This document shows, piece by piece, positions 2,968-51,275 of a DNA stretch of 64,000 nucleotides (its first letter is position 1; each line of letters begins with the position of its first letter). The stretch covers positions 21,766-85,765 of the forward strand of contig CAVTUG010000001.1 in the NCBI GenBank assembly GCA_963737865.1, in the 5' to 3' direction. The notes below the pieces were generated by a model. The model saw only the letters and a program-made list of their open reading frames with translations. It was not told the origin of the DNA and did no database searches. This DNA is from an uncultured Actinomycetota bacterium (lineage in GTDB: Bacteria; Actinomycetota; Actinomycetes; Streptosporangiales; Streptosporangiaceae). The position numbers and the translations under genes were made by a program.

Positions 2968-4377
2968 ATGGTTGCAGGCGTACGCGTTTATTCGCCAGAC
3001 GCCCTATTGCCAGAGCGCGCCCGGGCGTGGCTGGAAGCGGCCGATCTGCAATTCGACACCTGTGACAGCCCAGCAGCGCTCGCTCGGCTGCCCGGGGCAG
3101 ATGTGGCCGATGTGGTCTACGTTCCACCAGGTCGGGATCTGGACGCCGGTCGTGCCGCCGAGATGATCGAGCACTCCGCAGCGTCGCATTTCGGGATTCT
3201 GTCAGCAGAATCTGGGCTGGTTATTCATCGCGCGCACCGCGCGGCGCTGTCGTTATTCTACCGTCCGTTCGAACACCAGGCTGATGCGGCAGTCTATGCC
3301 AAAGGCGGCAGTTACCGAACAGATTACGGCTCCGGTCAGGTGCCGTTGCCCCGCCAGGTATATCTGGGACTGACCCAGCGATGCAACCGGACCTGCACGT
3401 TCTGTGTCTCGCGCTCGTTCGCTTATGACCTGCTCTCCGTCGCGCAGGTTAAGCGCCTGTGCGAGGAACTTCGCGGCGCGGTTGACTTTGTTGCCTTGAC
3501 CGGAGCCGGCGAGGCGATGATGCACCCGCAATTCTGGGACATCCTGGACGTGCTATGCGAACGGCTGCCCGGAATCCAGTTCAAGATGAACACCAGTGGT
3601 CTAGCGCTGCCACGCACGGCACGTCGGCTGCTCGGGTATCCGATAAAGAATATTACGGTATCTCTTAATGCGGCCACAGAGCCCACCTACCGGCGTTTCG
3701 TCGGTCCTGGCTTTGATGCGGTTCTCAAGGGAATAGAAACCCTCGTGCAGGCGCGCGCCGAACTGGATCGAGGGGATCTTCACCTCTGCCTGTCAATGGT
3801 GCTCATGAACAGCACGATTGCCGAGACCGCGCAGCTGGCGACTATTGCCGCAGAGCTGGGAATCGAGGAAATACAAGGGATCTACCTGATGATCAATGAC
3901 GATACCCTGGCAGCAGAGTCGCCCTGGCACGAGCCAGATCGCAGCAACGCTCTGCTGGCGCAGGCGGCCAGGCATGCCGCAGCTCTGGGCGTTCGGGCGA
4001 GCCTCCCGCCAGCTTTTCAGACTGGCGAGCTGCGGCGAGATCGTGACCAGTCCACTTCCCTGCCCACTATGCAGGGCCAGCGCTGCACGGAGGCCTGGTC
4101 GACGGTGTACGTCCGGCCGGACGGCCACATCATGTCCTGCCCCTACATGGACCGCGCTATGGGCAGCATCCGGACTCAGCCACTGGCGGAGATCTGGAAC
4201 GGCGAGTCGTACCGCGATCTTCGGCAAGGTCTGGTCGAGCAGAACCACTGCCAGGAATGCCGCTCCTGCTGCGGCTTCAACGAGACTGGCTCAGTCGACG
4301 AGTACCAGAGTCACTGGCTGGGCGAGCGGCGTCCCAGCGAGCCAATCCATCCTGATCGGCTATGGGAGCGCAGGTGA
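2968..4377 (+). CDS. Radical SAM enzyme with C-terminal SPASM/twitch-like Cys-rich domain
   Basis: CNRTCTFCVSR is the CxxxCxxC cluster motif. The C-terminal Cys-rich segments (CTEAW..SCPYMD..CQECRSCCGF) fit an auxiliary Fe-S domain. ATG 2968 is preceded by GGGGAGG, and the frame is open from 2896. Confidence 0.8.
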   Translation: MVAGVRVYSPDALLPERARAWLEAADLQFDTCDSPAALARLPGADVADVVYVPPGRDLDAGRAAEMIEHSAASHFGILSAESGLVIHRAHRAALSLFYRPFEHQADAAVYAKGGSYRTDYGSGQVPLPRQVYLGLTQRCNRTCTFCVSRSFAYDLLSVAQVKRLCEELRGAVDFVALTGAGEAMMHPQFWDILDVLCERLPGIQFKMNTSGLALPRTARRLLGYPIKNITVSLNAATEPTYRRFVGPGFDAVLKGIETLVQARAELDRGDLHLCLSMVLMNSTIAETAQLATIAAELGIEEIQGIYLMINDDTLAAESPWHEPDRSNALLAQAARHAAALGVRASLPPAFQTGELRRDRDQSTSLPTMQGQRCTEAWSTVYVRPDGHIMSCPYMDRAMGSIRTQPLAEIWNGESYRDLRQGLVEQNHCQECRSCCGFNETGSVDEYQSHWLGERRPSEPIHPDRLWERR

Positions 4378-6087
4378 GCGAAGTTGTGCTCGGGGTAAAT
4401 CTCGGTCACGACAGGTCGGCGTGCGTCGCCGTCGACGGAAAGCCGAGATACGCGATTGCCGAGGAGCGCCTGTCCAGGCGCAAGCACGACATCCCGCTGA
4501 ATGAACGCGGCGAGTACTACTGCTGCTTTCCGCACCGGGCGACTCGTTACTGCCTCGACGCGGCCGGTCTCACTTGCGATGACGTCGATCTGGTGGTCGC
4601 CAGCACCACCTACGTCCTCGACGTGAATTCCGGCGGCCGCAGGAATCTGGTTCCCGACGACGTTACCTGGCAGTGCCCCGAGCTGGCCGCCGCGCGAGTG
4701 GAGGTCGTACTACACCACCTTTCGCATGCCGGCAGCGTCGCGTTGTGCTCCGGGTTCGCGAGCGCGGCAGTCATAGCTATCGACGGCGGTGGCAGCGTTG
4801 TCCGCTACGAGAATAGCGATCCCGCTGATTTCGAGCGCACAACTTTGTTTCATTTCCTGGATGGTGACCTGGTTCCGGTCAGCCGTGTTGTCGGCGGGCC
4901 GCCCGCTTATGGTAACTCCATTGGAGATTTCTACCAGGTAATTACAGCCTATCTAGGATTCAGGCGCGGTGAGGAAGGAAAGACAATGGGGCTGGCCTGG
5001 CTGCGACGCCGGAGCCAGCTCCGGCGGCCCGGCCTGGCAGCCGCTAGCTGAGTTCAGTGACGCGATTGTCGTCAAGCCCGATGGCTGGCACGACGTCGCT
5101 GAGATGTTCCAGTTCACTCCGGACGGCGGTTTCGACCCTCGGCTCATCGCCGCGTTCGGGCCGCCGCGACGTGAGCCGAGCGCCGACAGTGCGCTCGACC
5201 GGCACATCGCCGCGTCGGCGCAGTGGGCTCTGGAGGAAGCAATGCTGCAGCTCACTGCGGCAGCTAGTCGCCTTACTGGTGAGCGCCGGCTCTGCCTGGC
5301 TGGCGGAGTCGCGCTGAACTGCGTCGCCAACGGCCGAACGGTACGGCAAGGATTGTTCGATGAGATATTTATTCAGCCGGCCGCAGGCGACGATGGCACG
5401 GCGCTAGGCAATGCCCTCCTAGGCATCTCGATGCTTGCCGATCGACCTCCCAGCTGGATCTTCAGGTCGCCCTATCTGGGCCGGACCTATGACGACGACG
5501 AGATCGCGGAGGAACTCAGCTCAGCGGGTGCCGCGGTGACGGTGGAGTTTCCGCCGGACGTTCCCGCCTGCCTCGCGGAAGACCTGGCGGCCGGCCGGAT
5601 CGTCGCCTTGTTCACAGGTGGCAGTGAGTACGGTCCGCGGGCGCTCGGCCATCGCAGCATCCTGTGCGATTCGCGATCGGCGGCGATGAAGGATTACGTC
5701 AACGCTCGGGTGAAGCACAGGGAGCCGTTCCGGCCCTTTGCGCCGCTTGTCCTCGAGGAGCGCGCGGCGGAGTACTTTGATCTTGCCGTGCCGAGTCCGT
5801 ATATGCTCCTGGCGGCGGACGTGCTCCGGCCCGATGAGATCCCGGCTGTTACCCATTTCGACGGTACGGCTCGAGTGCAGACGGTGAGTGCCCGGCAGGA
5901 GCCGTTCCTTCATGCGGTACTCAGCCGATACGCGGACCGCACCGGCGTTCCCGTATTGCTCAATACTTCTTTCAACGACCAGGAGCCGATCGTCGAGACT
6001 CCGGCCGACGCCATGCGCTGCTTCCTCGGCACTGGTATTGACGTCCTGTACCTAGCTGGTCGTCGTGTCATCAAGGCGGTGCCGTGA
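4374..6087 (+). pseudogene. Carbamoyltransferase (NodU/CmcH family); reading frame broken once near 4990-5010 (true frameshift or assembly indel)
   Basis: The N-terminal part (VLGVNLGHDRSACVAVDG, AEERLSRRKHD, GEEGKTMGLA) is in the frame of ORF 4362-5051. The remainder (CLAGGVALNCVANG, LNTSFNDQEPIV) is in the frame of ORF 4969-6087. GTG 4374 overlaps the upstream stop as GTGA. Confidence 0.8.
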
Positions 6088-8074
6088 TAGGCGCGGTCGA
6101 CGGCCTGATCTCGGCGGTCATGCTGGTGCGCGATCGGCCCGAGTACACTCGACAGGCTCTGGAGACCTTAACGGCCTGCGATGCCGAGCTGGAATTCGTG
6201 ATTGTCGACAACGGTTCTGGCCCGGATACCAGAGAACTCCTCGACGAATGGCGCGGCCGTGGCGGTCGCCCGGTGCAGGTGATACGTTTCGATTCCGATG
6301 CGGGTGGAGTTTCTCCCGCAACGCGGGCGCTGCCGCAGCCCGCGGTGAGTTCTTGTTCTTCGTGGACAATGATGTCGTCGCGGATGACCCGAAGGCGCTG
6401 CGGGTGCTTGGGTCAGCGCTGGCCGCAGATGCCGGTCTTGCGGCAGTCTCGCCGCTGCTGCTTTTTCCTGGTGATTGCGGACTGGTCCAGTGTGCGGGCG
6501 GGGCGTCAACCACCGATGGTCACATTGGCCTGCTGGGCAGGGCAGAAGTGCTCGCCGATCGGCACCGGCTGGCGCGCGAGCAGAGCTGGGCACCGGCGGC
6601 GGCGCTACTTGTCCGGCGTACGTCCTTCGACCGAGCCGGCGGCTTTGACGAGTCGTTCGACCCGGTTGCCCTGTGCGAGGACGTCGACCTGTGCTGCCGG
6701 CTCCGGGCGGCCGGCGAGCGCATCGGCTACGTGGGCGAAGCTTCGCTGCGCCACTACGAAGGAACGACCTTCAACCACATCGGCGTCGACAAGCTGGCGA
6801 TCTGGAAGGGTCATGTCCGGGTTCTGCGCGCCCGCTGGCACCGTGAGTTCGCCAGCGGCCCGATCCACCAGCTAGCCGACCTCGCCTGGCGACCGGTTCT
6901 CAAGGACTACGCCGACGTGGCCAGGCCACGGGTGAGCCTGCTCGCGACCAGTGCGCCTGCCCCCACGGACGCGACGTTCTTCGCGACCGACGCGACGCTG
7001 TCCGCCGGGCGGCCGGCGCCGGATGTGAGAGTCGGCATCGTGGGTTGCGGCCAGGCGGCGGTCAAGGGCGCGCTGCCAGCACTAGCCGCTCGGCAGAGAC
7101 GGGGTGACGCGCCTCCCGCTGCTCCGTTCCTCGACTTCGGCCCGGTGCAGGGGGTGCGCGTCAGCGGGGTCGCGGATCCCGATCTCGTGAACCTGCTCGC
7201 TGCGGCGCAGTGGTATGCCGTGCCGCACGCCACTCGCGACGCGTCAGCATTGCTCGATACCGTGCCCGCCGAGGGCGTCGTCATCTGCACGCCGCCGCAA
7301 TGGCACAGCAAGATCGCGGTCGAGGCGCTTCGGCGGGGGCTGCACGTCCTGGTAGAGAAACCAGCCGTGCTGACCAGGGACGCGCTGGACGAGCTGCTTG
7401 CCGCCATGCGGGCCAGACCCGAGCAGCATGTGGTGGTGAACCTGCCGTGGTCCTGCCATCCTGCCCTTGGCGTCCTCCGCCAGCTGGCCGGCACGGCGAC
7501 GACGGGTGACGTGCGCTCTTTCCACGTCGTCTTCGAGCACAGCGGCCCGCAGGCCTGGGCACCCAGGGCCTCCTGGTACCGGGAGGCGCCTGGCGGTGTT
7601 GTCACCGACCTGGGCCTGCACGTTCTCGACGCCGTCGGGCGCGCGATCGGCACGCCGCTCGGGCAGCTGCGTGCAGAGTCCGGCTGGGTGACCGGGACGC
7701 CGCCGGCACGGGCCAGGGCCGAGGTGACAGCGGCCGGCGTCAGGGGAGAGGTCGAGGTCAGCTGGGAGGCGCCAGCTCCTCGATTCACCATCGCCATCAC
7801 GTGCGATCTGGCGACGCTGCATGCGAGCCTCATTCCATATCGGACCGCTGGCCAGGCGGTCGAAGTACGAACTGCCGAGGGTGTCCGGCGGATCGCGGTG
7901 CCAGATTCGGGGCCGGCAGGCGACGGCCCCTACGCCGAATTTGTCGCGGCGCTCCGGGGCGGCCCGAGTCCCCGGACGTCGTTGCCGGCGTTGGCGGAGG
8001 TCTTGCGGACAATGATCGACTGGTCAGCGGCGATCCCTGCCCGGCCGGTACCTGTCATCGGCGGAGCCTCGTGA
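6084..8074 (+). pseudogene. Family-2 glycosyltransferase fused to a Gfo/Idh/MocA-type NAD oxidoreductase; frame broken near 6305-6312
   Basis: The GT2 N-terminus (SAVMLVRDRPEYT, FVIVDNGSGPDT) is in the frame of 6084. It continues as FSRNAGAAAARGEFLFFVDNDV and CEDVDLCCRL in the frame of 6065. The C-terminal half (VRVGIVGCGQAAVKG, VVICTPPQWH, HVLVEKP) is oxidoreductase-like. GTGA overlap at 6084-6087. Confidence 0.75.
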
Positions 8075-10647: not shown

Positions 10648-12200
10648 ATGCCCATGCAAACAGACGCCGCTAGCATCCGACGTCCTGCGGCAGGTATCCT
10701 GCGGCAGTATCTTCAGGCGACACCGCTCGACCAAATTGATGCAGCCGCGACTGCCTTCTATGCCAGTCTGGATTCAATTGGCGCTGTCGCACCTGGCGTC
10801 GCCGCAGCTATAGTGCAAGAGCTAATTGATCAGCGTTCTAATGTCAAGCTAATCGCCAGCGAAAACTACTGCTCGATGGCAGTGCAGCTCGCGCAGGGCA
10901 ACCTGCTCACCGACAAATATGCGGAGGGGTTCGCAGGTCATCGCTTCTACGCTGGCTGTGACAATGTCGACGAGATCGAGCGAACCGCAGCGGATCTTGC
11001 CGGTCAGGTCTTCGGGGCAGATCATGCGTACGTCCAGCCTCATTCGGGCGCGGACGCCAATCTGGTCGCATTTCTCGCGGTGCTGGCGGCAACCGTGGAA
11101 TCGCCCGCGCTCGAGGCCCTCGGCGAGCGAAATCCGGCTGCGGTCACCGACGCTGACTGGGCGCGCCTGCGGCAGGACTTCGTCGGCCAGAGACTTCTCG
11201 GAATGGACTACTACTCTGGCGGCCACCTCACCCACGGATATCGCCACAACGTCTCCACCGGCTATTCGAGGCGCATACCTATACCGTCGATCGCGATACT
11301 AACCTGCTTGATCTCGACGCCATCCGGCGGCAGGCTATGGAAGTTCGGCCACGGATTCTCCTAGCCGGGTATAGCGCATATTCTCGGAAAATAAATTTCG
11401 CGAAGCTACGCGAGATAGCCGATGAAGTCGGTGCCACCTTTATGGTCGACATGGCGCATTTCGCCGGTCTGGTCGCCGGCCGGGTATTCACCGGTGATTT
11501 TGATCCCGTGCCTTTTGCTCATATAGTGACCACGACCACCCACAAGACGTTGCGTGGTCCTCGCGGCGGGATAGTGCTGTGCAAGGCGGAGTTCGCGCCT
11601 GCGGTCGACAAGGGCTGTCCGATGGTGCTCGGAGGCCCGCTGCCGCACGTGATGGCGGCTAAGGCGGTGGCGCTGAAAGAGGCGCTCGATCCGGGTTTCC
11701 AGGTCTACGCGCATGACATCGTCAGCAATGCTCGCACCCTCGCCGATGAATTGCAGAAACGCGGCGGACGGGTACTCACTGACGGCACCGACAATCATCT
11801 CGTGCTGCTGGATGTCGCAACGTCGTACGGCCTGACCGGGCGCCAGGCGGAGTCTGCCCTGCGCTCCTGCGGGATGACGCTTAATCGCAACTCGCTGCCC
11901 TTCGATCCAAATGGGCCGTGGTATACCAGCGGACTCCGGCTCGGCACGGCCGCGGTGACTACTCTCGGCATGCGCGCTGCTGAGATCACCGAGATTGCCG
12001 ACGTCATCGTGTCGGTGCTGAGTCAAGTGACTGCGGTGACAACGGTGAAGGATGACGGCGCTGTGACAGTAAGCAAGGCCAAGTTCGACGTTCCGGAGAG
12101 GGTCGTCGACGGCGCGCGCCGTCGCATCGCTGACTTGCTCAGCGGACATTGCCTGTACCCGGAAATCGATCTGGACTTCATCCTTAGTCCGGCGGGCTAG
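10648..12200 (+). pseudogene. glyA: Serine hydroxymethyltransferase homologue (SHMT fold); frame broken near 11262
   Basis: LIASENYCSMAVQLAQGNLLTDKYAEG, YAGCDNVDEIE and [13 protein letters not shown] are in the first frame. My translation of the shifted frame gives [41 protein letters not shown], then [12 protein letters not shown] and [14 protein letters not shown] (PLP lysine motif). Confidence 0.85.
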
Positions 12201-16164: not shown

Positions 16165-18300
16165 GACGTGATCGCGATCGCCAGCGGACTGCTTCCGACG
16201 CGGATCGGGGCGCCAGGCGGCCGGTGGCCACGTCGATCGGCGTCACCGTGCCGCCGCCGTAGTTGGTGACGTAAGCGGTAGTGCCGTCCGGCGTGATCGC
16301 GATCGCCACCGGGCCGTCTCCGACCCGGATCGGGGTGCCCGCGCGGCCGGTGGCCACGTCGATCGGCGTCACGGTGTTGCCGCCGCCGTTGGCGCCGTAG
16401 TTGGCGACGTAGGCGGTCTTGCCGTCCGGCGTGATCGCGATTCCCCACGGGCCGCTCCCGACCCGGATCGGGGTGCCCGTGCGGCCGGTCGCTACATCAA
16501 TCGGCGTCACCGTGCCGCTCCTGCTGCTGCCATGGCTGGCGACGTAGGCGGTCTTGCCGTCCGGGGTGATCGCGATCCCATCCGGGCCGCTCTCCGACCT
16601 TGATCGGGGTGCCCGCGCGGCCGGTGGCCATGTCGATCGGCGTCACCGTGTTGCCGCCGTTGGCACCGTAGTTGGCCACGTAGGCGGTATTGCCGTCAGG
16701 CGTGATCGCGATCGCCCACGGGCCGTTCCCGACCCTGATCGGAGTGCCCGGCGCGGCCGGTGGCCACGTCGATCGGCGTCATGGTGTCGCCGCTGCCGTT
16801 CTTGTCGCCGTAGTTGCCGACATAGGCGGTCTTGCCGTCCGGCGTGATCGCGATCGCATCCGGGCCGTTGCCGACCTGGATCGGAGTGCCCGGCGTGGCC
16901 GGTGGCCACGTCAATCGGCGTCACTGTGTTGCCGCTGCCGTTGGTGCCGTAGTTGGCGACGTAGGCGGTCTTGCCATCCGGCGTGATCGCGATCGCATCC
17001 GGCGCGTTCCCGACCTGGATCGGGTGGCCCGCGTGGCCGGTGGCGGCGTCGATCGGCGTCACGGTGTCGCTGCCCGCGCTGGCGACGAAAGCACCTTTCG
17101 GGCCGTCGGGCGAGCTCCCGGCCGATGACGCCGGCGGCGATCACTGCGGCCGCCGCCACGGCGCCGGCGGCGACGAGAGCGATCAGCTCCGCCGCTTCGC
17201 TGGGCGTGGTCTCCGGCGTCGCCCGCTGCGGTCCGGCGGCGGTCTCCCCGCTGCGGCGATCGGCAGCTCGCGCTCCGCCCGGCCGGCATCGGCGGGCCGA
17301 CGGGTAAGCGGGCCGCGGCTCGACGGGCGGGGGCGCGGTCGCTACGGGCGCTGGCGCGGTAAACGACTCGGCGGCCTGCCCGGGCGGGCGCTGCGGCGAA
17401 CCCTCCGCCGATCCGGCCCCGTAGCGGGCCAGGCCAAGCGCCGCTCGCAGCGCCTCAGCGAAATCTCCGCAGGAAGCAAACCGGTCGGACGGCGACTTCG
17501 CTAGCGCCCGGGCGAATACGTCGTCAGCCTGGGCAGGCAGTTCCGGGCCGCCGGGAGGTCACCGGCGGCGGCGGCGCGTACAGGCGCGCGAACGCCTCCG
17601 CCAGGCCCTGATCCCGCCGGAATGGCGGGCCGCCGGTCAGCAGCTCAAAGGCCGCGCAGGCCAGCGCGTACTGGTCGGCCCGGCCGTCAACCGGGCGGCC
17701 CTCTAGCTGCTCCGGGGACATGTAGTCCAGGGTCCCGATGAACTGCCCCGAACCGGTCAGCCCGCTGGCTCGCCAGCGACCCCTTGCTCAGCCCGAAGTC
17801 CGACAGGTAGACATGATCAGGACGGCCCGGCCGGACATCGAGCAGCATGTTGGCGGGCTTGACGTCCCGGTGCACCAGTCCGGCCGCGTGCGCCGCGTCC
17901 AGCGCGGATGCCACCGGGGAGATGATCGCCGCCACCCGCTGCGGCGGTAGCGGGCCGTCCCGGTGAACCAGCGACAGCACGTCCCCGCCGTCCACGTACC
18001 GCATGGCGATGAAGAGCACGCCGTCGGCCTCGCCCGCTTCGTAAACGGGGATGATGTGCGGGTCGTCTACGGCTGCCGCCGCCATCGATTCGCCCGCGAA
18101 GCGCTGCCGGAACGCTAGGTCCCCGCCAGCGCCGGCGCCAGCAGCTTCAGGGCCACCCGGCGGTTCAGGCGCGTGTCATGCGCCCGAAATACGACCGCCA
18201 TGCCGCCCTGGCCAATCCGGTCCTCCAGCCGGTACCCGCCGATCAGCGAGCCAGCCGGCAACCAGCCCAGCGCCCACGACGGGGAGACATCATCACTCAA
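16161..18300 (-). pseudogene. Ser/Thr protein kinase with C-terminal YVTN-type beta-propeller repeats; at least 5-6 frame breaks
   Basis: The kinase N-lobe (YRLEDRIGQGGMAVVFRA, VALKLL) is in ORF 18115-18300. The catalytic loop (HRDVKPANMLL, SDFGLSKG) is in 17687-18085, and MSPEQLEG..DQYALACAAFELLTG is in 17524-17721. Repeats of the form YVANYG..NTVTPIDVATGRAGTPIRVG..P.AIAITPDGKTAYV are spread over five overlapping ORFs in 16136-17159. Confidence 0.75.
16165..17065 (-). repeat. Tandem ~132-142-bp coding repeats (about seven beta-propeller blades)
   Basis: The DNA string ccgtccggcgtgatcgcgatcgc recurs near 16284, 16424, 16556, 16694, 16836 and 16975. The translated repeat is about 46 aa. Confidence 0.7.
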
Positions 18301-18457: not shown

Positions 18458-18593
18458 TCCACAAGCTGGTGGCATATCCACAGCGTGAGCCGGCTTCTTC
18501 GCTGGAACTCTAGGGTTGGCCGTCCACAGGGTGTCATGTCCTGCGGCGGAGTTTCCCACAGCCGAGGCCAGTTTATGCACGTTGTGATCCACA
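18458..18593. promoter_or_regulatory. Cluster of five TCCACA(G/A)G direct repeats in a divergent promoter region
   Basis: TCCACA occurs at 18458, 18477, 18523 and 18588, and CCCACA at 18555. All five are on the same strand within 136 bp, between the kinase pseudogene start (18300) and the MazG-like gene (18708). Confidence 0.25.
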
Positions 18594-18707
18594 GGTTGCT
18601 GCGGGTAGCGTGCCGTTCCTGGCTGCGGGATTAATATGCGCTACTGAATAATGGTGCAGCGACCCCGGCCGCTTGTGAGCAAATTCGGTCAGCGGTGGAG
18701 GTGCAAA

Positions 18708-19034
18708 GTGGACATCCGATCGGTGCAGAAGCTTGCCTGGGATAACAAGGTCGCTAAAGGCTTCAATACGACCGATGTACCCATGGAGTTCTGCCTGCTG
18801 AGCGGTGAGGTGGCGGAGGCGTTTGACTCCTGGCGCAAGGGCCAGGCGGACGTGGCGGAAGAACTCGCGGATGCGGCGATCTTCCTCGCCGGTCTGGCGG
18901 AAATGGTCGGCTCGGACTTGCAAGATGCAGTAGAAGCGAAGTTGGCTGCAAACGAGGCGCGGGTGTATCGACCACTTTCCAACGGGGTGTTGGTCAAGGC
19001 TCAGAAACCAGGCTCATCGCTGAACTCGGCATGA
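18708..19034 (+). CDS. MazG-like nucleoside triphosphate pyrophosphohydrolase (small all-alpha type)
   Basis: SGEVAEAFDSWRKGQADVAEELADAAIFLAGLAE matches the EExxE..EELAD metal-binding pattern of MazG-type enzymes. GTG 18708 is preceded by GGAGG. The 3' end overlaps the convergent kinase gene. Confidence 0.6.
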   Translation: MDIRSVQKLAWDNKVAKGFNTTDVPMEFCLLSGEVAEAFDSWRKGQADVAEELADAAIFLAGLAEMVGSDLQDAVEAKLAANEARVYRPLSNGVLVKAQKPGSSLNSA

Positions 19035-19525
19035 ACGCCGGTTGTAGTGTCGATGTTCAGAACGGTCGCGTGCTCGGATAGTTGCTTGAAGACGTTGGCG
19101 TAGCCGGCGATGAGCGAGTGGATGTGGGCTTGTGGCGGTGCGTGGCCGTCGCGTTCCTGGAGGCGCGCGGTGATGCGGTCCGGCTGGCCGGTGAGGTGGA
19201 CGAGGATTCCCTGGCGGTCGGCGACAATTGCGGCCAACTGGGCAGCCTGTTCCTGAGTGAGCCGGGAAGTTCCGCGTTCAAGAGGTCCATAGACTAGTTC
19301 GCTCACAAAACTCCGGTCAAGAACGAGTGGTCCCGGACTAGTAAGAATGGCTTTGTATCTGACGAAGAGATCCGTCCCGGCATCGCTGAGACTGGAATGG
19401 ATCACGCGGTGGCCGAAAATGGCCGATATCTGTCGTACGAGGGTGGTTTTGCCGGTTCCGTCGCAGCCGTCGAGCACGATGAGCGCGTATTGTCCGATGC
19501 TATTTGCCGGTTCTGTGAGGGTCAT
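19001..19525 (-). CDS. P-loop (deoxy)nucleoside-monophosphate kinase-like protein (thymidylate-kinase-like)
   Basis: The Walker A region IVLDGCDGTGKTT resembles the dTMP kinase EGxDGxGKTT motif. About 174 aa counted from ATG 19525, which overlaps the upstream stop as ATGA. Confidence 0.65.
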   Translation of the reverse strand: MTLTEPANSIGQYALIVLDGCDGTGKTTLVRQISAIFGHRVIHSSLSDAGTDLFVRYKAILTSPGPLVLDRSFVSELVYGPLERGTSRLTQEQAAQLAAIVADRQGILVHLTGQPDRITARLQERDGHAPPQAHIHSLIAGYANVFKQLSEHATVLNIDTTTGVHAEFSDEPGF

Positions 19526-20472: not shown

Positions 20473-20482
20473 GATCCGCCTT

Positions 20483-21283: not shown

Positions 21284-21289
21284 CAGATG

Positions 21290-24323: not shown

Positions 24324-24536
24324 AGTACAGCCTCCATGAACTTCGGGTGTACCTCACGCAACGCGTTCAGGTGCGACTCATTGTGGCACTTGATGTCTTT
24401 TTAGACAATGCCGATAGCTGTGTGTCGCGCGATATTAGAGTGACGCCGACCTAGAAGGGACAGTTGGCGCAGGGCAATATTTCATCGTGTTCTTAGTTCT
24501 CGCCGGTTCGCCGGGAAAAGGCACGCGAGCTGAACG

Positions 24537-32487: not shown

Positions 32488-35400
32488 GTGCTGAACGAGC
32501 GGGACGCCAGGCCGACTCCGCTTGACCGCTCGGGCTTGGCCTCCTTCGGGCAGGAGCAGCTCTGGCTCGTCGAGCAGGTCGTGCCTGGCACCTCGGTCAG
32601 CAACGACACCCGCGCGTGGGATCTGCATGGTCCGCTCGACAGCATCGCACTTCAGGCCGTCACTGACCAGTTAGTGGCCAGCCACGAAGCGCTGCGCACG
32701 TCGCTGCGCCACCAGGACGGACACCTCTGGCAGCAGGTCGGCCCGGCCGGACCTGCGGTGTTCGTGCACCGCTCCGCCGACAGCCCGGACGCCGCGGTCA
32801 CGATGCTGGGAGAATTCGTCGCTGCGCCCTTCGATTTAGCGGACGCGGCGCCGTTGAGAGCGATCCTGATCCGGATCCGGCCCGAGCATCACCTCTTCGC
32901 CATGGTCATTCACCATTCGGCCGGTGACGGGCAGTCCTGGGTGTGCCTTCGGGAGGAGCTTGCGAGCCGCTACGCCGCGCTCCTGGCCGGACGGCCAGTG
33001 CCGACGGCGGCAGCGGGTGCGGACTACCTGGATTTCGCCGAGCAGGAGCGGGCGCACTGGGCGGCGAACTCCGGTGCGGCGCAGGACTGGCTGGAAGGTC
33101 TGCGGAAGGCGGCCGGAAATTACGCGACGCTGCCGGCCGGCCAGTCCAGGGTGCTGGTGGCCGCCGCGCGGGCGCTGTCCTTCGATCTCCCGCAGCCCGC
33201 GCTCGACCGCCTCCTCAGCCGGGCGGCAGAGACGGCCTGCACCCCCAACATGGCCCTCACCGCACTATTCGCGGTCACCCTGAGCCGCTGGACGGGTCGC
33301 CCCAGGATCCTCTTCAGCTCCCCGGTCAGCTCCCGGCTCGATCCCCAGTTCCATCGCACGGTGGGAATGTTCGTCAACAGCATGCCGATGCTGCTGGACC
33401 TGACCGGCAATCCCGGCTTCGGCACGCTGCTGGGCCGGGCGCGAGCCGCCGTGCTGGACGGCTTAGCCCAGGTGCAGGTGCCGCCAGCTCAGATCCAGGC
33501 CGCGCTGGCCGACGGTGCACCAGCGACGGACCTGCTCCATCAGGTCACGCTGGCCGTAGAGCGGACCGGCCCTTCGCGGTTCACGATGGCCGACGTGACC
33601 GGAGTGGATCGCCGGCTTGTGCCACCGCAGACGATCTTCGGCCTTACCGCCCGAATCGAGCTGGGTGTCAGTCGCTCCCAGCTCTTCCTGTACTACGACC
33701 CCGCGATGCTCTCCGGCAGCGAAGCGGCCCGGTTCGGCGCCCACTTCACCGAGACGGTGGCCGTGGCGGCGCAGGCCCGCACGGCGGCGGACCTGCCAGC
33801 TGTCCCCGAGGTCGACCGGCGCCGGTTCCTTGACTGGTGCGCAGGTCCGCGCCGGAAGGACGCTGCCGGCCTGGTCGAGCGCATCGCGAGCCACACCCGT
33901 GAGCAGCCAGAGGCGCTCGCAGTCTGCGACGGGGAACAGCGACTCAGCTACCGAGCGCTCTGGACGGCGTCAGCGGCATATGCCCGGCGGCTGCGCGAAC
34001 TAGGCGTCGGGGCCGAGGACGTCGTAGGCGTCTGCCTGCCCCGCTCAGTCCGGCTGCCCGTGGCGATCCTCGCGATCCTGCTGGCCGGCGGCGCCTTCCT
34101 GCCGCTGGATCCGCGCAACCCGGCCGACCGGAACGCGACGCTGCTCACCGCCACGCGAGCCCGCGCCCTCGTCGCGGACCACGGCCCGGCGGCCGGCGAC
34201 TGGGACGGACCAGTGCTAGCCGGACCAGTGCCAGCCGGACCAGTGCTAGCCGGACCAGTGCTAGCCGGACCAGTGCTAGCCGGACCAGTGCTAGAGAGAC
34301 CAGTGCCAGCCGCAGCCCGGTCCGATGCCAGCTGGGACGGGCCACGCGTGCCGGCCGCCCCCTCGGCGCTGGCCTACATCATCCACACCTCCGGCTCCAC
34401 CGGTGCTCCCAAGGGTGTCATGGTCAGCCACCGAGGACTCGCCAACTACCTGCGCTGGGCCAGCGCCGCCTACGGCCTCGCTCCCGGTGGCGTGGTGCCA
34501 CTGCACACCTCACCCGCGTTCGACCTCGCGATCACCAGCCTCCTCGGCCCGCTCTACGCGGGCGCCGCGCTGCGGGTGCTGCCTGACACCGCAGGGCCGC
34601 TGGCCGTCGCCGAGCTACAGCCCGAGAACTACCAGATGGTGAAAGGGACGCCGAGCCACCTGATGGCACTGCACGACGCGGCGGATTCCGGCTGGTCCCA
34701 AAGAGCGCCGCAGGTGCTGGTCTTCGGCGGCGAGAACTGGCCGGCCGAGCACGCGCAGCGCTGGCGAGCCAGATTGCCCGGCTCGCTGCTGATCAACGAG
34801 TACGGGCCCACTGAGACGGTGGTCGGCTCGACCGCGTTCTCGGTGACCGGTCCGCTGGCCGGCACCCTGGTGCCGGTCGGAAGGCCGGTCGACAATACCC
34901 AGGCGTATGTCGTCGATGCCGAGCTTCCGGCTCGTGCCGGCCGGGGTGACCGGCGAGCTGGTGCTCGGCGGCGTCGGGGTGGCCAGGGGCTACCAAGGCG
35001 CGCCCGCCCTCACCGCTGAGCGGTTCGTGCCAGACCCGTTCAGCCCGGCGGGCGGCGAGCGCCTGTACCGCACCGGTGACCTGGCCCGCTGGAACGCCGA
35101 CGGCGAGCTGGAACTGACCGGACGTGCCGACGACCAGCTAAAGATCCTCGGGTACCGGGTGGAACCCGGTGAAGTGGAGGGCTGGCTGGCGCGCTGCCCC
35201 GGGGTCAGCCAGGCGGCCGTCATCGGCGACCGGAGACCAGACGGGAACCGGCTGGTGGCCTTTCTGGTGCCGGAGGCTGCGGCGGCGACGACCCTGCCCG
35301 AGGCTACCCTGCCCGGGGCGACCCGAGCCTGGCTCAGTCGCTGGCTTCCGCCGTATCTGGTGCCCGATCAGTTCGTGCTCCTGGATCGGATGCCGACGAC

Positions 35401-35716: not shown

Positions 35717-37377
35717 AAACGCTTCCGATCTTTCCGGCCCAGCGCAGTCTGTGGATCGCCGAGCAGATGGGTACCGCTGGTGCCGCCATGCACGCGGAGC
35801 AGGCCGTCGAACTGGACGCCCCGGTGGACACCGGAGCGCTGTGCGAGGCGATCCAGGAAATCGTGCGCCGGCACGCGGCTCTCCGCACCACGTTCGCGCT
35901 GGCGGACGGCGAAATCTGGCAGCAGGTCCATCCGGACGCGGTGATCCCCGTGCCGGTCATCAACCTCGATCAAGCCGGCTCGGCCCGGCAGCCCGAGGGA
36001 TACTGGCTGCGCCACCCGCAGGTCCGGCCGATCATCGGTGCGCCGTTCGATCTCGCCAAGGACTTCCCTATCCGGGCGGGCCTGGTGAGGCTGCCAGCCG
36101 GGCGATTCGGCCTGCTCGTCGTCGTCCACCACATCGTCTCTGACCTGGCCTCCGCGCAGATTCTGAGGTCCGAGCTCACCGCTGTCTACGCGGCTTTCGC
36201 GCGCGGCGCACCGTCCCCGCTGCCTGCCTTGAGAGTCCCGTACGAAGAGCTGATGAGCCGGAATCGGCCCGCTGGCAATGCAGCCGAAAGCAGCCGGCGA
36301 AGCGCTACTGGGCACAGCGCCTCGCGGATCTCGCTGCGCCGATCGACCTAGCCTGCGGCGCGCCGAGGCCGAAGGTGCCGAGCCGTCAGGGTGCGGTACT
36401 GCGAACCGAGCTGACTGCGGCGCAGGTGCGCAAGGTGACCGCCTTCGCGCAGGCAGAGCACGTGAGCGTGTTCGCCGTCGCACTAGCGGCCTACTACCTC
36501 ACCCTGGCGGCCCACACCGGGCAGCGCGACCTGCTCGTGGCCGTCCCGAACCTGCAACGTGAGGACACGGCATCGGCCGACCACCTCGGATGTTTCCTCA
36601 ATATGCTTGTTCTCCGCGAGTCCGTGGTCGGTGCTGCCTCGCTGACGGAGTTCCTCGGGAACGTGTGGGACACGGTCATCGGAGCACTCGAGCATCGCGA
36701 GCTGCCGTTCGCCGAAGTAGTGGAGATCGCGTCGCCGCGCCGTTACCCCGGCTACCGTCCGCTGACGCAGGTTGGCTTCACCGTGGCCGAGGCTGAGTCC
36801 GGAGCGCTCGACTTCGGTCCGACCAGCGGCAAGATGCTGACCATCGACCGAGAGTGGATCGCGTACGACCTGATGGCGTCGGTGCAGCTCGCCGGGGAAT
36901 CGATGCTGATCTCCTTCGAGTACTGCCCTGCCGTCGTGCCGGAAGCTACGGCCGCGACCCTGCTGCGGAACTTCACCAGCATTCTGGGCCGGATGTGCGA
37001 GAGCACCGGGCTCCTGGTGCACGACCTGACAGCGGGAGGGGCGGACGCCGACCATCGCGCGGGAGCGCCAGCAACGCCCGTCGCAGCCATCACAGACAGC
37101 GGCCCGGATGGGCAGGAAGTGACCGGCGGCCCGGCGGCACTGTCGAAACTGGCGGCACTGTGGAAAGAGGTACTCGACGGAGTCGAGCCAGCGCCTGAGG
37201 ACGACTTCTTCCTGCTCGGCGGCCACTCGCTGGCCATGATCAACCTGATGATGCGCATCGACGAAGTGTTCGCCATCGAACTGCCACTCGACGACTTCCT
37301 GCAGCTGCCGACCCTGCGGGAGCAGGCCTGCAGTCGCCCGGCTGGCCATGGCCCCGGCCGGCGACGAGGAAGCGTGA
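35713..37377 (+). pseudogene. NRPS C-T didomain protein; frame broken near 36255 and again near 37329
   Basis: The C domain has MKTLPIFPAQRSLWIAEQ and VVHHIVSDLAS. The shifted frame reads RYWAQRLADLAAPIDL. The T domain has FFLLGGHSLAMINL. A third segment reads AVARLAMAPAGDEEA with the stop at 37375-37377, just before the next ATG. ATGA overlap at 35713-35716. Confidence 0.8.
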
Positions 37378-39281: not shown

Positions 39282-41109
39282 ATGAGCTTCGAGCCCATTC
39301 ATCACATGGTGGAGCGGACCGCCAGCCGATTTCCGGGCAGCGTGGCGATCGAGTCGCCGGAAGGCCAGCTCACGTATGCGCAACTCGAGGCCGGGGCGAA
39401 CCACCTGGCCCGGCAACTGCAGGCTGCGGGGGCCGGCCCGGGCTGCCTCGTGCCGATCGTCGCCGATGATCGCCGCGAGGTCGTCATCGCCGTCCTAGCC
39501 GCCCTGAAAGCCAGGGCGGTGTTCGCGCCGCTCGATCCGCACAGCCCCCGCGAACGGCTGGGGGGCATCCTGGACGGCTCGCACCGCGATGGGTGCTGCT
39601 CGGCGCGGGCAACCGGGCTCGCGACGCCGAGCTGGTGCAGCGGCACGCGCCGGCCGCGACGCAGGTCACGGTGGACCCGGCCGATCGCGGTAGTGGCCTG
39701 CCCGAGCCGACCCGGCCAGAGCCGGACGACGAGTGCTACGTGTTCTTCACCTCCGGCTCCACCGGCCGTCCCAAGGGCATCGTGGGCCGGCGAAGGCCGT
39801 GGACCACTACATCCGCTGGGAAACGGAGGCACTCGGCGTGGAACCCGGGTGGCGCTGCAGCCACCTCACCTCCCCGGCTTTCGACGCGATGCTCAGGGAC
39901 ATTTTCCTGCCGCTGTGCTCCGGAGGGACGATCTGCGTGCCGCCACCAGCCTCCGCCCTCGACGCGCACCAGCTCAGCAAGTGGATCGATGCCGAGAAGA
40001 TCAGCCTGGTGCACTGCGTCCCCGCCGTGTTCCGTGGCCTGGCGCGGGTGGCGGACTCGGCGCCGCAGGAATTCCGGGCGCTCCGCTGGATCGCTCTGGC
40101 GGGGGAGCAGCTCCCGCCCGATGACGTCCGCCGGTGGCTCGGCCGCTACGGGGAAAGGATCGGCCTGGTCAATCTCTACGGCCCGTCCGAGGCGACGATG
40201 ACGAAGACCTATCACTTTGTCACCCCCGCCGACGCCGGCCGGGACTCGGTCCCGATCGGGGTGCCCATACCGGACACCGAAGCGCTGCTCGTGGACAGCC
40301 GAGACCAGCTCTGCCGCGACGGCGAGATCGGCGAAATCTATCTGCGCACTCCGTACCTGACGCATGGCTACTACCGGCAGCCGGACGCGACGAGCCAGGT
40401 CTTCGTCCCGAACCCCGTCACCGGGGACCGCGTCGACATCGTCTACCGCACGGGGGACTTCGGCCGTCGGCTGGCCGACGGTGAGCTGGAGTTTCTCGGA
40501 CGCAAGGACCATCAGGTCAAGATCGGCGGAGTGCGGGTCGAACTGGAGGACGTGGAGCGCACGCTCCGCGAACTGCCAGCCGTGCGCGACGCCGCAGTGG
40601 CGCTCGACCAGTCTGGCGACGTCCCTTGCCTCTGCGCTTTCGTGGAGGCGGACGGCGAAGTTGACGAGGATCTCCTGCGGAGCAGGCTGCGCGCGCGGCT
40701 CCCGGTGGCTGCCATTCCAGCCTCGATCGTCGTCCTGGACCGGATCCCGCGCACCGTGAGCGGGAAGACCGACCGCCGGTCGCTGCCGCTCGGCCTGGCC
40801 AGGCGCGGTCGCGGGGACAGCGAGGGGACGAGGCCAGGCACGCCGACCGAGCGAGCTCTCGCCGGACTGCTTCACGAGCTGGCGCCCGCCGTGGCGGTGG
40901 ACGTCCGGGCGGATCTCCTCGACCTCGGCGCCAACTCGCTGCTGATCATGCAGCTCCTGCTCCGGCTCAACGATGACTTCGATCTCGAGGTCCCGCTTCA
41001 GACGTTCCTCGCCGCACCGACCCTGGCGGCGCTGGCGCGCTGGATCGACACCGAGGCGCGGGACGAGGACCATGCGCTCGACCGATTGCAGCGACATGCC
41101 ACGACCTGA
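39282..41109 (+). pseudogene. NRPS A-T didomain protein; frame broken near 39581 and near 39790
   Basis: It uses three frames. The first has TYAQLEAGANHLARQL and FAPLDP. The second has WVLLGAGNRA and CYVFFTSGSTGRPKGIVG. The third has AKAVDHYIRWE, NLYGPSEATM, YRTGDFGRR, GRKDHQVKIGGVRVELEDVE, VSGKTDR and the T motif LGANSLLIMQL. Confidence 0.85.
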
Positions 41110-42175: not shown

Positions 42176-42836
42176 GTGCCTCGGCCGATCGAGCAGCGAA
42201 CAGCACCGAGATTGCATCAGCAAAATAGGCCGAGCGGGAGTTCTGCGCAGCTTGCCCGACAGCCTATCCCGAATGACAAGATCATGGTGACTGAGGTGGG
42301 TCTCCAGATCTCGCAGGCGGTCGATTTCGATACCTGGCAGCAGGCGGGTCGCAAAATCGGGCGAATTTCCGAATCCTCTACGTGGTGCCTGGGTGACTGG
42401 CTGATCTATGGCCAGGACCAGTACTCAGATAGATACCGGCTGGCAATCGACTCCGCTCAGCTGGATTACCAGACACTGCGCAACTATGCCTGGGTAGCCC
42501 GCCGATTCGAGCTGAGCCGCCGCCGGAGCCGGCGGCTTCCAGCACCACGCGGAGGTCGCCGCACTGCCGCCCGATGAGCAGGATCGCTGGCTGGATCTCG
42601 CGGAGGGCAAGGGCTGGTCACGGAATGAATTACGCAAAAACATTCGGACCAATGCCCGCGGCAGGGAACTTCCGGATTCCTCGATCACCCTCCTTCCTCG
42701 GCTGTACGTGCCCGCCGAGCACCTCGTTCGCTGGCGCGAGGCGGCGAAGCGCCTCGACCAGGACTTCCAGCTCTGGATGGTGACTGTCCTTAACGAGAGC
42801 GCCGCGCGCGATCTTCGGCGCCGCGAGTGCGAATGA
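42176..42836 (+). pseudogene. LmbU-family pathway regulator; frame broken near 42540; contains a TTA codon
   Basis: STWCLGDWLIYGQDQYSDRYRLAIDSAQLDYQTLRNYAWVARRFELSRRR is in the first frame. My translation of the shifted frame gives GFQHHAEVAALPPDEQDRWLDLAEGKGWSRNELRKNIR through to the stop at 42834-42836. TTA codon at 42630-42632. Confidence 0.65.
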
Positions 42837-43779: not shown

Positions 43780-44061
43780 ATGTCAGACGCCGATCGGCTG
43801 CGTGATCAGCAGGTCATCCGGATGATCGTAAGCCAGCTCGCTCCGGTCAATATCGATGGCCTCACGGCGGAAGCCCGCCTTATCGAGGATCTCGGTTACC
43901 ATTCGCTAGCGCTTCTCGAACTCGCATTCGCGCTCGAGGACGAGTTCGGCCTCCCGCCGCTGGATGAGGAGACGGCGCGGAAGATTCGCACTGTCCGGGA
44001 CGTGGAGGACTTGGTTGCACAACGGCTGTCGACAGCAGAACGCAGCGCTGACGCAAGCTGA
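43780..44061 (+). CDS. Free-standing acyl/peptidyl carrier protein
   Basis: About 93 aa. It has the phosphopantetheine-site context IEDLGYHSLALLELAFALEDEFG. Confidence 0.8.
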   Translation: MSDADRLRDQQVIRMIVSQLAPVNIDGLTAEARLIEDLGYHSLALLELAFALEDEFGLPPLDEETARKIRTVRDVEDLVAQRLSTAERSADAS

Positions 44062-45347
44062 GGGGGCGCGCGAGGCCGGCCTTTATCGGGCAGCGCCTGA
44101 TCTGGCTTCTGGAGCGACGCGGCGGAGTAACCGGCGTCCTGAACGTCTTCAGCGCCTTCCGCCTCCGGGGGCCACTGAGCGAAGAGGCCCTGCTTGACGC
44201 GCTGCGGGAATTGCCGGTGCGGCACGAGAGCTTACGCACTACTTTTTCCGGGAATGGTCCCAGGCTCTCGCAGCTAGTACATCCTTCGCATCCGGTGCCA
44301 GCTCACGTCGTGAAGTTACTGGACATCCGGGCCGCCGAGCTCACCGATGCCGTGCGAGCGGAGGCGCGCCTGCACTTCGACCTGGGGACGCAGTGGCCGT
44401 GCCGGATGCGGCTGTTCCGGGTCGGCCCTGATGACCATGTGCTCACCATCGTGATCCACCACATCGTGACCGATGGCTGGTCCATGGCCGTCCTCATGGA
44501 CGAGCTGCGGACGCTGTATGCCGTGCGGCTCGGGGAGCGGGTCGAGCCGCCGGAACCGTGCGCGTGGCACCAGGCCGACTTCGCCCTGTGGCAGCGTCAG
44601 TGCATGGAAGACGGTTCTTTCGACGGGAAGACGGCCTACTGGCGGGAAGCTCTGGGGACGGCCCAGCCGATCAGCCTGCCGTCGGCACTCCAGGTGCCGT
44701 CGCCAGACCCCGAGCACGAACCGGGCGTCCTGCAGTACGACGTCCCCGCGAAGGCCGAAACGGTATTCCGGGAAGCCGCACTGCGGCATCGCAGTAGTTT
44801 CTTCGCGGTGCTCGTCGCGGCTTTCAGCGGGTACCTGGCCGCCAGCGGCAGCCAGGGGAAGATCCTCGTGCCGGTGTTCTTCGCTAACCGGACCCGCATG
44901 CAGGTACGCCGGACCGTCGGCTACTTCTCGAACTTGATGCTGCTTCCTATCGATCTCACGGATCAGCCATCATTCGCGGAGCTGATTGGCCGCTCAATGC
45001 GTACAATCTTGAAAGCCATTGCCAACCAAGATGTTCCGTACCATGTCGTGCCGCCGCCAGAACATGGAATCGAGCGGCGGAAGCATCCGGAGCTGGTGCT
45101 GGACTACTTCAAGATTGCCGGAAACGATGCGCTCGAATTATCTGGGCTCGACGTAAGGTCGTACGGTCTCGATGTCGCTACCGGAACGCGATTCGCTGTC
45201 GAGTTCCATTTTGTCGAGCGGAGCGATGGTCTCAAGATAGCGTGTGTCTACTCTCCCGATTACACCTGCGCTGGTGCCATTACCCGATTTCTTGACGGAT
45301 TTGCTGACTTCGCGTCGCAGCTTGGTGCCGGTAGTCTTAGCGGGTGA
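44052..45347 (+). CDS. Stand-alone NRPS condensation domain (start unresolved; possibly fused to the preceding carrier protein)
   Basis: It has the N-terminal C1-like RPAFIGQRLIWLLERR and RHESLRTTF, and the HHxxxDG motif VIHHIVTDGWS. The frame opens at 44052 with no ATG/GTG before the TTG at 44211. Confidence 0.8.
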   Translation, partial: RKLRGRARPAFIGQRLIWLLERRGGVTGVLNVFSAFRLRGPLSEEALLDALRELPVRHESLRTTFSGNGPRLSQLVHPSHPVPAHVVKLLDIRAAELTDAVRAEARLHFDLGTQWPCRMRLFRVGPDDHVLTIVIHHIVTDGWSMAVLMDELRTLYAVRLGERVEPPEPCAWHQADFALWQRQCMEDGSFDGKTAYWREALGTAQPISLPSALQVPSPDPEHEPGVLQYDVPAKAETVFREAALRHRSSFFAVLVAAFSGYLAASGSQGKILVPVFFANRTRMQVRRTVGYFSNLMLLPIDLTDQPSFAELIGRSMRTILKAIANQDVPYHVVPPPEHGIERRKHPELVLDYFKIAGNDALELSGLDVRSYGLDVATGTRFAVEFHFVERSDGLKIACVYSPDYTCAGAITRFLDGFADFASQLGAGSLSG

Positions 45348-50144: not shown

Positions 50145-50304
50145 GGGAGGTTCGGGCGAGGTGGGCCTGACCAGGGCCTGGAGGACTATCCCTACTAAAT
50201 CGTATGTTAAGGGTTGTGGGTCGATTGTCGATGGGCTAGCTTGGCAAAGCCGGCCTGGGCTGGCCGCCGTTACCTGGGCATAACTCACGCGCGCTGGAGG
50301 TAAG

Positions 50305-51275
50305 GTGTCGCAGGCTGCCGTGGAAATGGCTAACACTCATCTGATCAGCGATTTACTGCCTGCGGACTCGCCTCGGATCGCCGCGAAAGCAGCGGGCACG
50401 TCCGCGTCCTCGCGGAGTCATCGACGCAGCTTCCGCCGATCCTGGTGCACCGGCAGAGCATGCGGGTCATCGACGGGATGCATCGCCTGCAGGCAGCGGT
50501 GTGGCGCGGAAAGTCCACTATAGAAGTGGAATGGTTCGACGGAACGGCGGAAGACGCCTTCATCGAGGCGGTCCGCGCCAACGTCAGCCACGGGTTGCCG
50601 CTCACGCTCTCGGACCGGGAGGCGGCCGCGATGCGGATAATCCAGACGCATCCCAGCTTCTCCGACCGTCGTATCGCGACGATCACCGCGCTTGCTCCCG
50701 GTACGGTGGCGGTCGTCCGTCAGCGGTGCGGGTCTGCGGGCGATACCGGCGCTCGCATCGGGCGCGACGGCAGGATCCGGCCGCTGACGAGCATCGACGG
50801 CCGAAGAGCCGCTCAGCAGGCGATCGCGGCTCATCCCGACGCGTCCTTACGCATGATCGCGGAGCAGGCCGGCATTTCGCCGACAACGGTCCGTGACGTG
50901 CGCGAGCGCATGCTCCGAGGCGAAGACCCGATCCCCGCTGGCCTCTCGCATCGCGAGTCAGCAGGCCGGCAGCAAGGGCCTGCCAGGACCAAGGGCAAGG
51001 TCCGGCGCCTTAGGGGCGCCGAGAGCGGCCGCGGGCGGCTGACGCTGCTCCAGGACCTGTGCCGCGACCCGTCGTTGCGGCTGACGCAGCCAGGTCGCCA
51101 TTTTCTGTACTGGCTCAAGAACCGGGCCGCCCCGCTCCAGATCCAGCCCGAGGAACTGAACACCATTCCCACCCACGCCCTGTTCCTGGTCGCCCAGATC
51201 GCTAATCAGTGCGCGGATGAGTGGTACGAGTTTGCGCAGAAGCTTGAGGAACGCCTTCAGGACGCGAAGCAGTAG
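50305..51275 (+). pseudogene. StrR-like / ParB-N-domain transcriptional regulator; frame broken near 50378
   Basis: ISDLLPADSPRIA is in the frame of GTG 50305. GHVRVLAESSTQLPPILVHRQSMRVIDGMHRLQAA (ParB-like DGxHR) follows in the frame of ORF 50445-51275. HTH-like segments are IATITALAPGTVAVVRQR and IAEQAGISPTTVRDVRER. Confidence 0.7.

Follow-up and report, generated by a model that had tools for sequence, protein, structure and literature searches.

Long-read assemblies, those from ONT and PacBio among them, have been described as prone to indel errors that fragment genes (e.g. in the Kastor paper, PMC12007338). The frame breaks reported here resemble such errors in being single-base and genome-wide, and in splitting conserved genes into adjacent out-of-frame ORFs; they were found in the window, by which we mean the whole analysed stretch of 64,000 nt, and in the genome to which it belongs. 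Also shared with long-read assembly errors are a low marker completeness despite very high contiguity and the lack of clear nonsense mutations. Errors in long homopolymers are the textbook nanopore signature; unlike it, the errors seen here lie mainly outside long homopolymers, are locally clustered and include slightly more insertions than deletions. Many frameshift-interrupted genes are also a trait of pseudogene-rich genomes of the Mycobacterium leprae type. In true decay, however, essential genes are spared, nonsense codons and deletions accumulate, and conservation declines downstream of a break, whereas here essential genes are broken, clear nonsense codons are lacking and downstream conservation is kept. 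At programmed frameshift sites, e.g. prfB (+1) and dnaX (-1), a slippery sequence is conserved, and so is its position in orthologues; the breaks described here are similar in that the protein continues in another frame, but they occur in varied contexts and the orthologues lack them. On the evidence given below, we consider it highly probable that the frame breaks are consensus errors of a long-read assembly and do not reflect gene decay.

A preliminary description of the window had listed about 20 single-base breaks of reading frame in otherwise conserved genes. ORF pieces were scanned one by one against Pfam, with X-masked frames used as well, and conserved motifs were followed through three frames; a GC3 frame plot was too noisy at the window's GC3 of ~0.8, and frames were mapped by homology instead. 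The piecewise scan and the three-frame motif reading verified 21 switches in the deposited sequence (11 insertion-type and 10 deletion-type). All listed sites were recovered at or within a few bases of their positions, with the exception of 37329, which is only plausible. The features are as follows:

4998-5043, plus strand: break in the carbamoyltransferase gene, insertion-type (+1)
6300-6307, plus strand: break in the GT2 glycosyltransferase gene, deletion-type (-1), placed by Pfam and motif continuity
11257-11261, plus strand: break in the SHMT-like gene, deletion-type
16212-18120, minus strand: gene of the architecture Ser/Thr kinase - TM - YVTN beta-propeller repeats, broken at 8 sites
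18113-18120, 17755-17779, 17541-17553, ~17069-17120, 16888, 16746, 16589 and 16212-16216, minus strand: the switches of the kinase gene
24537-24880, minus strand: weak C-terminal remnant of a CHAP domain with in-frame stops
25361-25364, plus strand: break in the RCC1-repeat gene, insertion-type
29593-29603, plus strand: break in the gene of a secreted beta-propeller protein (PQQ_2-like), deletion-type
34927-34933, plus strand: break inside the A domain of the C-A-T NRPS gene, insertion-type
36256-36299, plus strand: break inside the C domain of the C-T gene, deletion-type
37320-37340, plus strand: possible break in a T-domain tail, candidate only
39579-39589, plus strand: first break in the stand-alone A-T gene, deletion-type
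39788-39795, plus strand: second break in the stand-alone A-T gene, deletion-type
42527-42536, plus strand: break in the LmbU-like regulator gene, insertion-type, from motif reading only
43490, plus strand: break in the SAM methyltransferase gene, insertion-type, outside a homopolymer
44041-44075, plus strand: break at a T-C junction, deletion-type, additional to the earlier list
50380-50393, plus strand: break in the StrR-like (ParB-N + HTH) regulator gene, deletion-type

For most sites the two halves of a single Pfam profile fall into different frames. Carbam_trans_N is matched over positions 126-213 in the ORF at 4362-5048 and over positions 268-346, together with Carbam_trans_C, in the next frame at 4969-6084; the motif GEEGKTMGLA ends at 4997 and LAEFSDAIVV begins at 5044. 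In the glycosyltransferase gene, frame 0 matches Glycos_transf_2 over positions 1-64, and the match to Glyco_tranf_2_2 over positions ~71-202 is in frame 2. SHMT profile positions 6-109 are likewise separated in frame from positions 167-399, and the motif GGHLTHG...NVS carries on in the shifted frame past the break. The methyltransferase profile (Methyltransf_23) is interrupted most sharply, with positions 7-89 ending at 43489 and positions 90-125 beginning in the next frame at 43491. RCC1 repeats are present in both pieces of the RCC1 gene, where GIRITAVQAG is followed by HDSMALTAAGRV across the break, and the PQQ_2-like repeat pattern of the propeller protein runs from ...STVVVTGSS to TNTDYATIGYNA. 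In the two regulator genes we read WVARRFELSRRR followed by FQHHAEVAAL (LmbU-like, for which there is no match to a Pfam model) and ISDLLPADSPRI followed by GHVRVLAESS...PPILVHR (StrR-like). The downstream pieces in the window score from 1e-20 to 1e-73 in Pfam, e.g. 9e-62 for Carbam_trans_C and 6e-73 for the C-terminal part of SHMT.

The NRPS genes behave in the same way. In the C-A-T gene, AMP-binding positions 4-359 end at 34924, and AMP-binding_C and PP-binding follow in the next frame; in the C-T gene, the Condensation profile is divided between two frames, with positions 4-177 in one and 230-437 in the other, in both cases by Pfam and by reading of the motifs. The same evidence places the first break of the A-T gene between AMP-binding positions 2-90 and 151-190, while the second, directly after the core motif STGRPKGIVG, separates positions 151-190 from 200-384. 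A frame break at 37329 is plausible from the reading frames: the T-domain ORF overlaps asnB by 60 nt, and a second possible frame stops shortly upstream of the asnB start codon (ATG at 37382), where AsnB begins cleanly with MCG, so that either frame could end the T-domain tail. At the T-C junction, the C domain of the called ORF starts at profile position 54, and the conserved N-terminus of the domain (PAFIGQRLIW) is found at 44076. The T and C domains probably belong to one gene split at 44041-44075, because the frame of this C domain, which begins at about 44076, offers no start codon upstream of 44211.

The kinase gene stands apart. The preliminary description had counted at least 5 breaks there; three-frame translation yields 8 switches, 6 of the insertion type and 2 of the deletion type, with kinase motifs and 47-aa repeats running on from frame to frame. 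About six 138-nt units form a tandem array in the gene, and two of its breaks, at 16888 and 16746, occupy an identical position in adjacent repeat units, where the same extra base stands in an identical 13-nt context. Such a recurrence requires an error that is systematic and specific to the context, or else a real event.

We compared the window with the rest of the genome, which comprises 7.56 Mb in 12 contigs with a marker completeness of 86.2% and a complete 16S inside a contig. These statistics match an assembly of the long-read type, with high contiguity and depressed marker completeness; in a sister assembly, with 8 contigs and a completeness of 71%, rpoB is broken. A tblastn search with ORFs from 800 kb of a genome of the same genus gave 305 orthologues (median amino acid identity ~77% in the first 400-kb set), and within the 345 kb aligned we found 78 tight frame switches. 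Densities range from 0.20 to 0.34 per aligned kb on contigs C1, C9, C10 and C11, i.e. at least four contigs are affected. The identical pipeline applied to a control genome (G010) gave 4 switches in 211 kb (0.019 per kb). Random indels planted in the control genome served for calibration and translate the 0.226 per kb that we observed into ~0.33 true indels per kb. In the window there are 21 breaks in 47 kb (~0.45 per kb) with the kinase gene and 13 breaks in ~45 kb (~0.3 per kb) without it. Thus breaks occur in conserved core genes genome-wide at a density like that of the window, and, the kinase gene being the only outlier, the density of the window is otherwise no higher than that of the genome. 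Comparison of near-identical repeats in this genome gives ~0.4 one-base gaps per kb for each copy, which speaks for error; the gap-free, 100% identical copies of some multi-copy elements speak against it. The rpoB gene of this genome is intact, a result that fits a density of 0.33 per kb (P ~0.3) and is not evidence against error.

Among the broken genes are the single-copy essential genes rplB, rpsD, trpS and glmM (named by NCBIfam), for none of which we found a second intact copy in the genome. Identities of the two flanks are 92% and 91% for rplB (break at C1:313488), 97% and 89% for rpsD (C1:326885), 82% and 77% for glmM, and 86%/87% and 87%/57% for the two breaks of trpS (C1:398915 and C1:399298); cofGH carries at least 4 breaks. 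In DNA alignments the core-gene breaks are 1-nt indels relative to genome G002, with which G010 is collinear there. Genome-wide we counted 47 insertion-type and 31 deletion-type breaks, a mix like that of the window (11 and 10). Their contexts are mostly runs of three bases or fewer; the breaks are not concentrated in long homopolymers, and the pattern points to no single platform. No k-mer dominates the junctions: the best, GCCGGC, occurs at 13% of junctions and at 4% of controls, and the enrichment of GCCGGC, GGCGCA and AGCTCG is modest and insufficient to name a methylation motif or a platform. No clear genuine nonsense codon accompanies the breaks. Of the 34 stops inside HSPs, all but a few, which were not individually classified, visibly fall into upstream stretches that are not translated, into shadow frames, or into short out-of-frame segments bounded by two neighbouring indels. 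In the window itself, the pieces overlap or abut as open frames, in agreement with the earlier statement that in-frame nonsense codons are absent from the breaks.

The exception noted before was a CHAP remnant at 24537-24880. It contains in-frame stops and its N-terminal half is absent in every frame there; the domain match itself is a weak one, with 23.4 bits (cut-off 26) over profile positions 47-81 only. This possible remnant nearby, together with the concentration of many breaks in one locus, would suit a biosynthetic gene cluster that is truly decaying, with real frameshift mutations and a non-functional product. The locus also has no close relative elsewhere, as might be expected for a dispensable island: the syntenic locus was not found by DNA in 40 relatives, which gave only ~70% matches to NRPS domains; the exact AsnB protein has no record in public assemblies; and no independent copy emerged from searches of genome contigs with AsnB (best match 58%, in unrelated phyla) or of metagenome contigs with the C-A protein (best match 41%). 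We nevertheless regard decay of the cluster as very improbable, as the density outside the kinase gene does not exceed the calibrated genome-wide value, single-copy essential genes are broken likewise, the corrected frames of the window are free of nonsense codons and deletions, and full-strength domain scores are retained downstream of the breaks. If decay is extended to the whole genome, as massive pseudogenization by reductive evolution of the M. leprae type, frame breaks in 61 of the 305 sampled conserved genes (~20%) speak in its favour. Against it stand the large size of the genome, the breaks in single-copy rplB, rpsD and trpS, which are indispensable to the cell, shifted-frame flanks that are mostly 77-97% identical to orthologues, the lack of clear genuine nonsense codons among the HSP stops, and lesions consisting of 1-nt indels only; this explanation is extremely improbable. 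Programmed ribosomal frameshifting or transcriptional slippage is effectively refuted: nothing favours it except that +1 and -1 junctions exist, and the shifts go in both directions, share no slippery motif, are scattered within catalytic domains and are lacking in the G002 and G010 orthologues at the core-gene sites.

More specific is the idea that most breaks are errors but that the kinase-propeller gene (16.2-18.1 kb) is truly a pseudogene or has genuinely variable repeats. Its 8 breaks in ~2 kb are far above the genome mean (~0.7 expected), two of them are identical in neighbouring repeat units, and the frame is restored by three successive +1 shifts. Errors cluster elsewhere as well, though: an ABC ATPase gene has 4 breaks within 0.64 kb, cofGH has at least 4, and 6 genes carry at least 3 breaks (1.3 expected). 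The kinase region combines the highest GC content of the window (72.6%) with a tandem array, the kind of region where consensus polishing is weakest, and its corrected path contains no stop codons; we therefore hold a genuine lesion of this gene to be quite improbable. Somewhat broader, and still unlikely, is the reading that some breaks are genuine, chiefly the kinase cluster of eight, which would then mark a recently inactivated or phase-variable sensor kinase beside an orphan NRPS cluster; as another possibility, a DNA-modification motif that derails base-calling would be marked by the recurrent context. Among the individual breaks a minority could be genuine.

We thus return to assembly error as the preferred explanation. 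The breaks exist in the deposited sequence, genome-wide and in essential single-copy genes, without clear genuine nonsense codons. Since the ribosomal proteins L2 and S4, among others, are broken in like kind and at like density throughout the genome, the breaks are attributed to assembly error and not to decay. The support for read or consensus error as their cause is indirect but strong, and we hold this cause with high confidence; the preference for indel-type sequencing error over pseudogenization, voiced in the preliminary description, is backed by the whole-genome test, i.e. by the core-gene density and the broken essential genes. A long-read assembly of the metagenome type would have kept uncorrected single-base insertions and deletions in its consensus, scattered over the entire genome at about one per 3 kb with some clustering in GC-rich or repetitive patches. 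The 'pseudogene' flags, gene calls and domain predictions for the NRPS-type cluster would then be assembly artefacts.

With errors distributed genome-wide, the NRPS-type, antibiotic-type cluster of the window is most probably intact in the organism and functional there. An assembly-wide rate of ~1 indel per 3 kb extrapolates to a number of the order of 2,000 indels in the genome, which distort gene calls, domain architectures, pseudogene counts, completeness and BGC predictions in this assembly; similar assemblies in the genus, e.g. G013, are likely affected likewise. The breaks themselves hold no new biology, and their value is that of a warning: any prediction of the chemistry of the NRPS-type cluster must be preceded by frameshift-aware annotation or by polishing.

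The observation that conserved genes between positions 4374 and 51275 are interrupted by about 20 single-base frame breaks is correct. We scanned the ORF pieces singly against Pfam and read three frames around each claimed site. At every listed site except 37329, where a break is only plausible, consecutive parts of a profile are covered by two pieces in different frames, the junction intervals fall within a few bases of the positions first proposed, and conserved motifs run directly over each junction. As Pfam gives no model match or only an HTH match for the LmbU-like and StrR-like genes, their breaks are read from motifs alone.

Pfam profile coverage by pieces in different frames
Carbamoyltransferase: Carbam_trans_N 126-213, then 268-346 and Carbam_trans_C in the other frame
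SHMT-like gene: SHMT profile 6-109, then 167-399 in the other frame
NRPS adenylation (A) domain: AMP-binding 4-359, then AMP-binding_C and PP-binding in the other frame
NRPS condensation (C) domain: Condensation 4-177, then 230-437 in the other frame
NRPS A-T (adenylation-thiolation) gene: AMP-binding 2-90, 151-190 and 200-384 over frame-shifted pieces
Methyltransferase: Methyltransf_23 7-89, then 90-125 in the other frame

A further break, missing from the preliminary description, lies at a T/C domain junction (44041-44075), where the C domain has its conserved N-terminus but no start codon. All pieces overlap as open frames, so that no in-frame stops are required, as had been stated; the proposed CHAP remnant does match the last 35 profile positions, but below threshold. 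By frame arithmetic 11 breaks are of insertion type and 10 of deletion type. Runs of identical bases at the breaks are mostly ≤3 nt long, and the one inserted base at 43490 clearly falls outside any homopolymer.

Since no second copy of the locus was found in any collection searched, the rest of the source assembly (G000, GCA_963737865.1) was examined for the same kind of breakage. Long ORFs from 800 kb of a good same-genus genome (G002) were translated and searched against it with tblastn; a tight junction was counted wherever two same-strand HSPs of one query adjoin but differ in frame. Among 305 orthologues (345 kb aligned; median amino acid identity ~77% in the first 400-kb set) we found 78 tight junctions in 61 genes, at similar rates (0.20-0.34 per kb) across contigs C1, C9, C10 and C11. 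The same pipeline run against 400 kb of a control relative (G010), with no indels planted, yielded 4 in 211 kb. When random 1-nt indels were planted in this control at known densities, ~55-75% were recovered; the observed 0.226 per kb thus corresponds to ~0.33 indels per kb. The window without its kinase gene holds 13 breaks in ~45 kb (~0.3 per kb), and with it 21 in 47 kb (~0.45 per kb). Breakage in the cluster thus does not exceed that of the genome overall. Junction types genome-wide (47 insertion, 31 deletion) also resemble those of the window. One-base gaps separate near-identical repeats inside the assembly at ~0.4 per kb per copy, in agreement with the calibrated rate, although some copies are identical.

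Decay of the locus would be the alternative, and the core genes bear on it. NCBIfam names among the broken genes those for 50S protein L2, 30S protein S4, phosphoglucosamine mutase, tryptophan-tRNA ligase (two breaks), FO synthase CofGH (at least four), GuaB3 and glycerol-3-phosphate dehydrogenase. With tblastn, neither rplB nor rpsD nor trpS proved to have another intact copy in the assembly. Identity to the orthologue is high on either side of the break (L2, 92/91%; S4, 97/89%), DNA alignments to G002 reduce the breaks to single-base gaps or insertions, and at these genes G002 and G010 align collinearly; the broken core genes cannot be pseudogenes. Nearly all of the 34 stop codons within HSPs visibly precede a real start, belong to antisense shadow ORFs or fall where two neighbouring indels enclose a short out-of-frame stretch. 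A few were left without individual classification, and in no conserved context did we see a clear nonsense substitution. A distant trpS paralogue (~29% identity; G000:C9:159852-160810) is likewise divided over two frames.

The window lies at C1:21766-85765 of G000. The assembly itself (7.56 Mb, 12 contigs, 68% GC) has a full-length 16S gene within a large contig and a whole rpoB, and its marker genes give 86.2% completeness and 4.06% contamination. High contiguity with depressed completeness would suggest that long reads were assembled and some indel errors left uncorrected; PMC12007338 describes gene-fragmenting errors in long-read assemblies, with which this picture is consistent. In G013, a same-genus assembly of 8 contigs (71% complete), rpoB lies in two frames (957 aa and 267 aa; G013:C1:268020-271324, L012). 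Several assemblies of the genus probably share the artefact.

The breaks are unevenly distributed: six genes carry at least three junctions versus 1.3 expected, and GC content around the junctions is slightly raised (0.702 versus 0.691, p = 0.02). Enrichment of k-mers is modest (GCCGGC, 13% versus 4% of controls; GGCGCA, 10% versus 2%) and points to no platform and no methylation motif. Breaks are dense in one gene of the window and at two local error hot spots outside it:

16212-18120, minus strand: Ser/Thr kinase-TM-YVTN-propeller gene, eight switches ('at least 5' in the preliminary description)
G000:C1:124750-125400: ABC-transporter ATPase gene, four switches in 0.64 kb
G000:C10:39900-42400: FO synthase gene (cofGH), at least four switches

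The kinase gene lies where GC content peaks in the window (72.6% over 2 kb) and includes about six 138-nt units repeated in tandem. The breaks at 16888 and 16746 (minus strand) fall in adjacent YVTN propeller repeat units, share their position within the unit and add the same base within an identical 13-nt context, GCCGGGCACTCCG; GCCGGGC, around the RCC1 break at 25361, is similar to it. The paired breaks fit either a consensus error tied to sequence context or reads placed in the wrong repeat unit, and they, perhaps with the RCC1 break, may reflect systematic error of the former kind. These repeats are also the one place where a genuine event is a credible, though improbable, reading. For the window as a whole, indel-type error, preferred over pseudogenisation from the start, is very probably the right reading, the same breakage being found genome-wide and in core genes.

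The affected cluster is NRPS-centred and spans 2896-62432; two stretches within these bounds are listed after its parts:

Assembly line: several C, A and T pieces, stand-alone A domains, an AMP-binding (fatty-acyl-AMP-ligase-like) gene, a KAS III-like gene
Tailoring: CmlA-like di-iron beta-hydroxylase, AsnB-type amidotransferase, carbamoyltransferase, GT2 fused to or followed by a GFO/IDH/MocA oxidoreductase, DegT aminotransferase, SHMT-like enzyme, ATP-grasp enzyme, radical SAM/SPASM enzyme, methyltransferase, P450
Other: APH-like kinase, MFS exporter, LmbU-like and StrR-like regulators
6065-8074: single open frame, C-terminal part of the GT2 and complete GFO/IDH/MocA oxidoreductase, no stop between
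18500-24400, minus strand: nucleoside 2-deoxyribosyltransferase, PfkB kinase, HhH-GPD protein, Asp/Glu-racemase-like protein, P-loop kinase, radical SAM enzyme

The frame at 6065-8074 is either a natural fusion or one whose stop was lost through further indels. The 18500-24400 stretch, with lower GC (60-63%) and no frame breaks seen, may form a nucleoside-modifying module or island of its own. No close relative of the cluster was found among 185k species genomes and JGI metagenomes; AsnB has its best match (58%) in unrelated phyla among the former, and the C-A protein reaches 41% in the latter. The frame breaks in the window, being an artefact of assembly, tell little about biology but are a useful caution for users of this genome, while the orphan cluster is worth re-annotating once the assembly has been polished.
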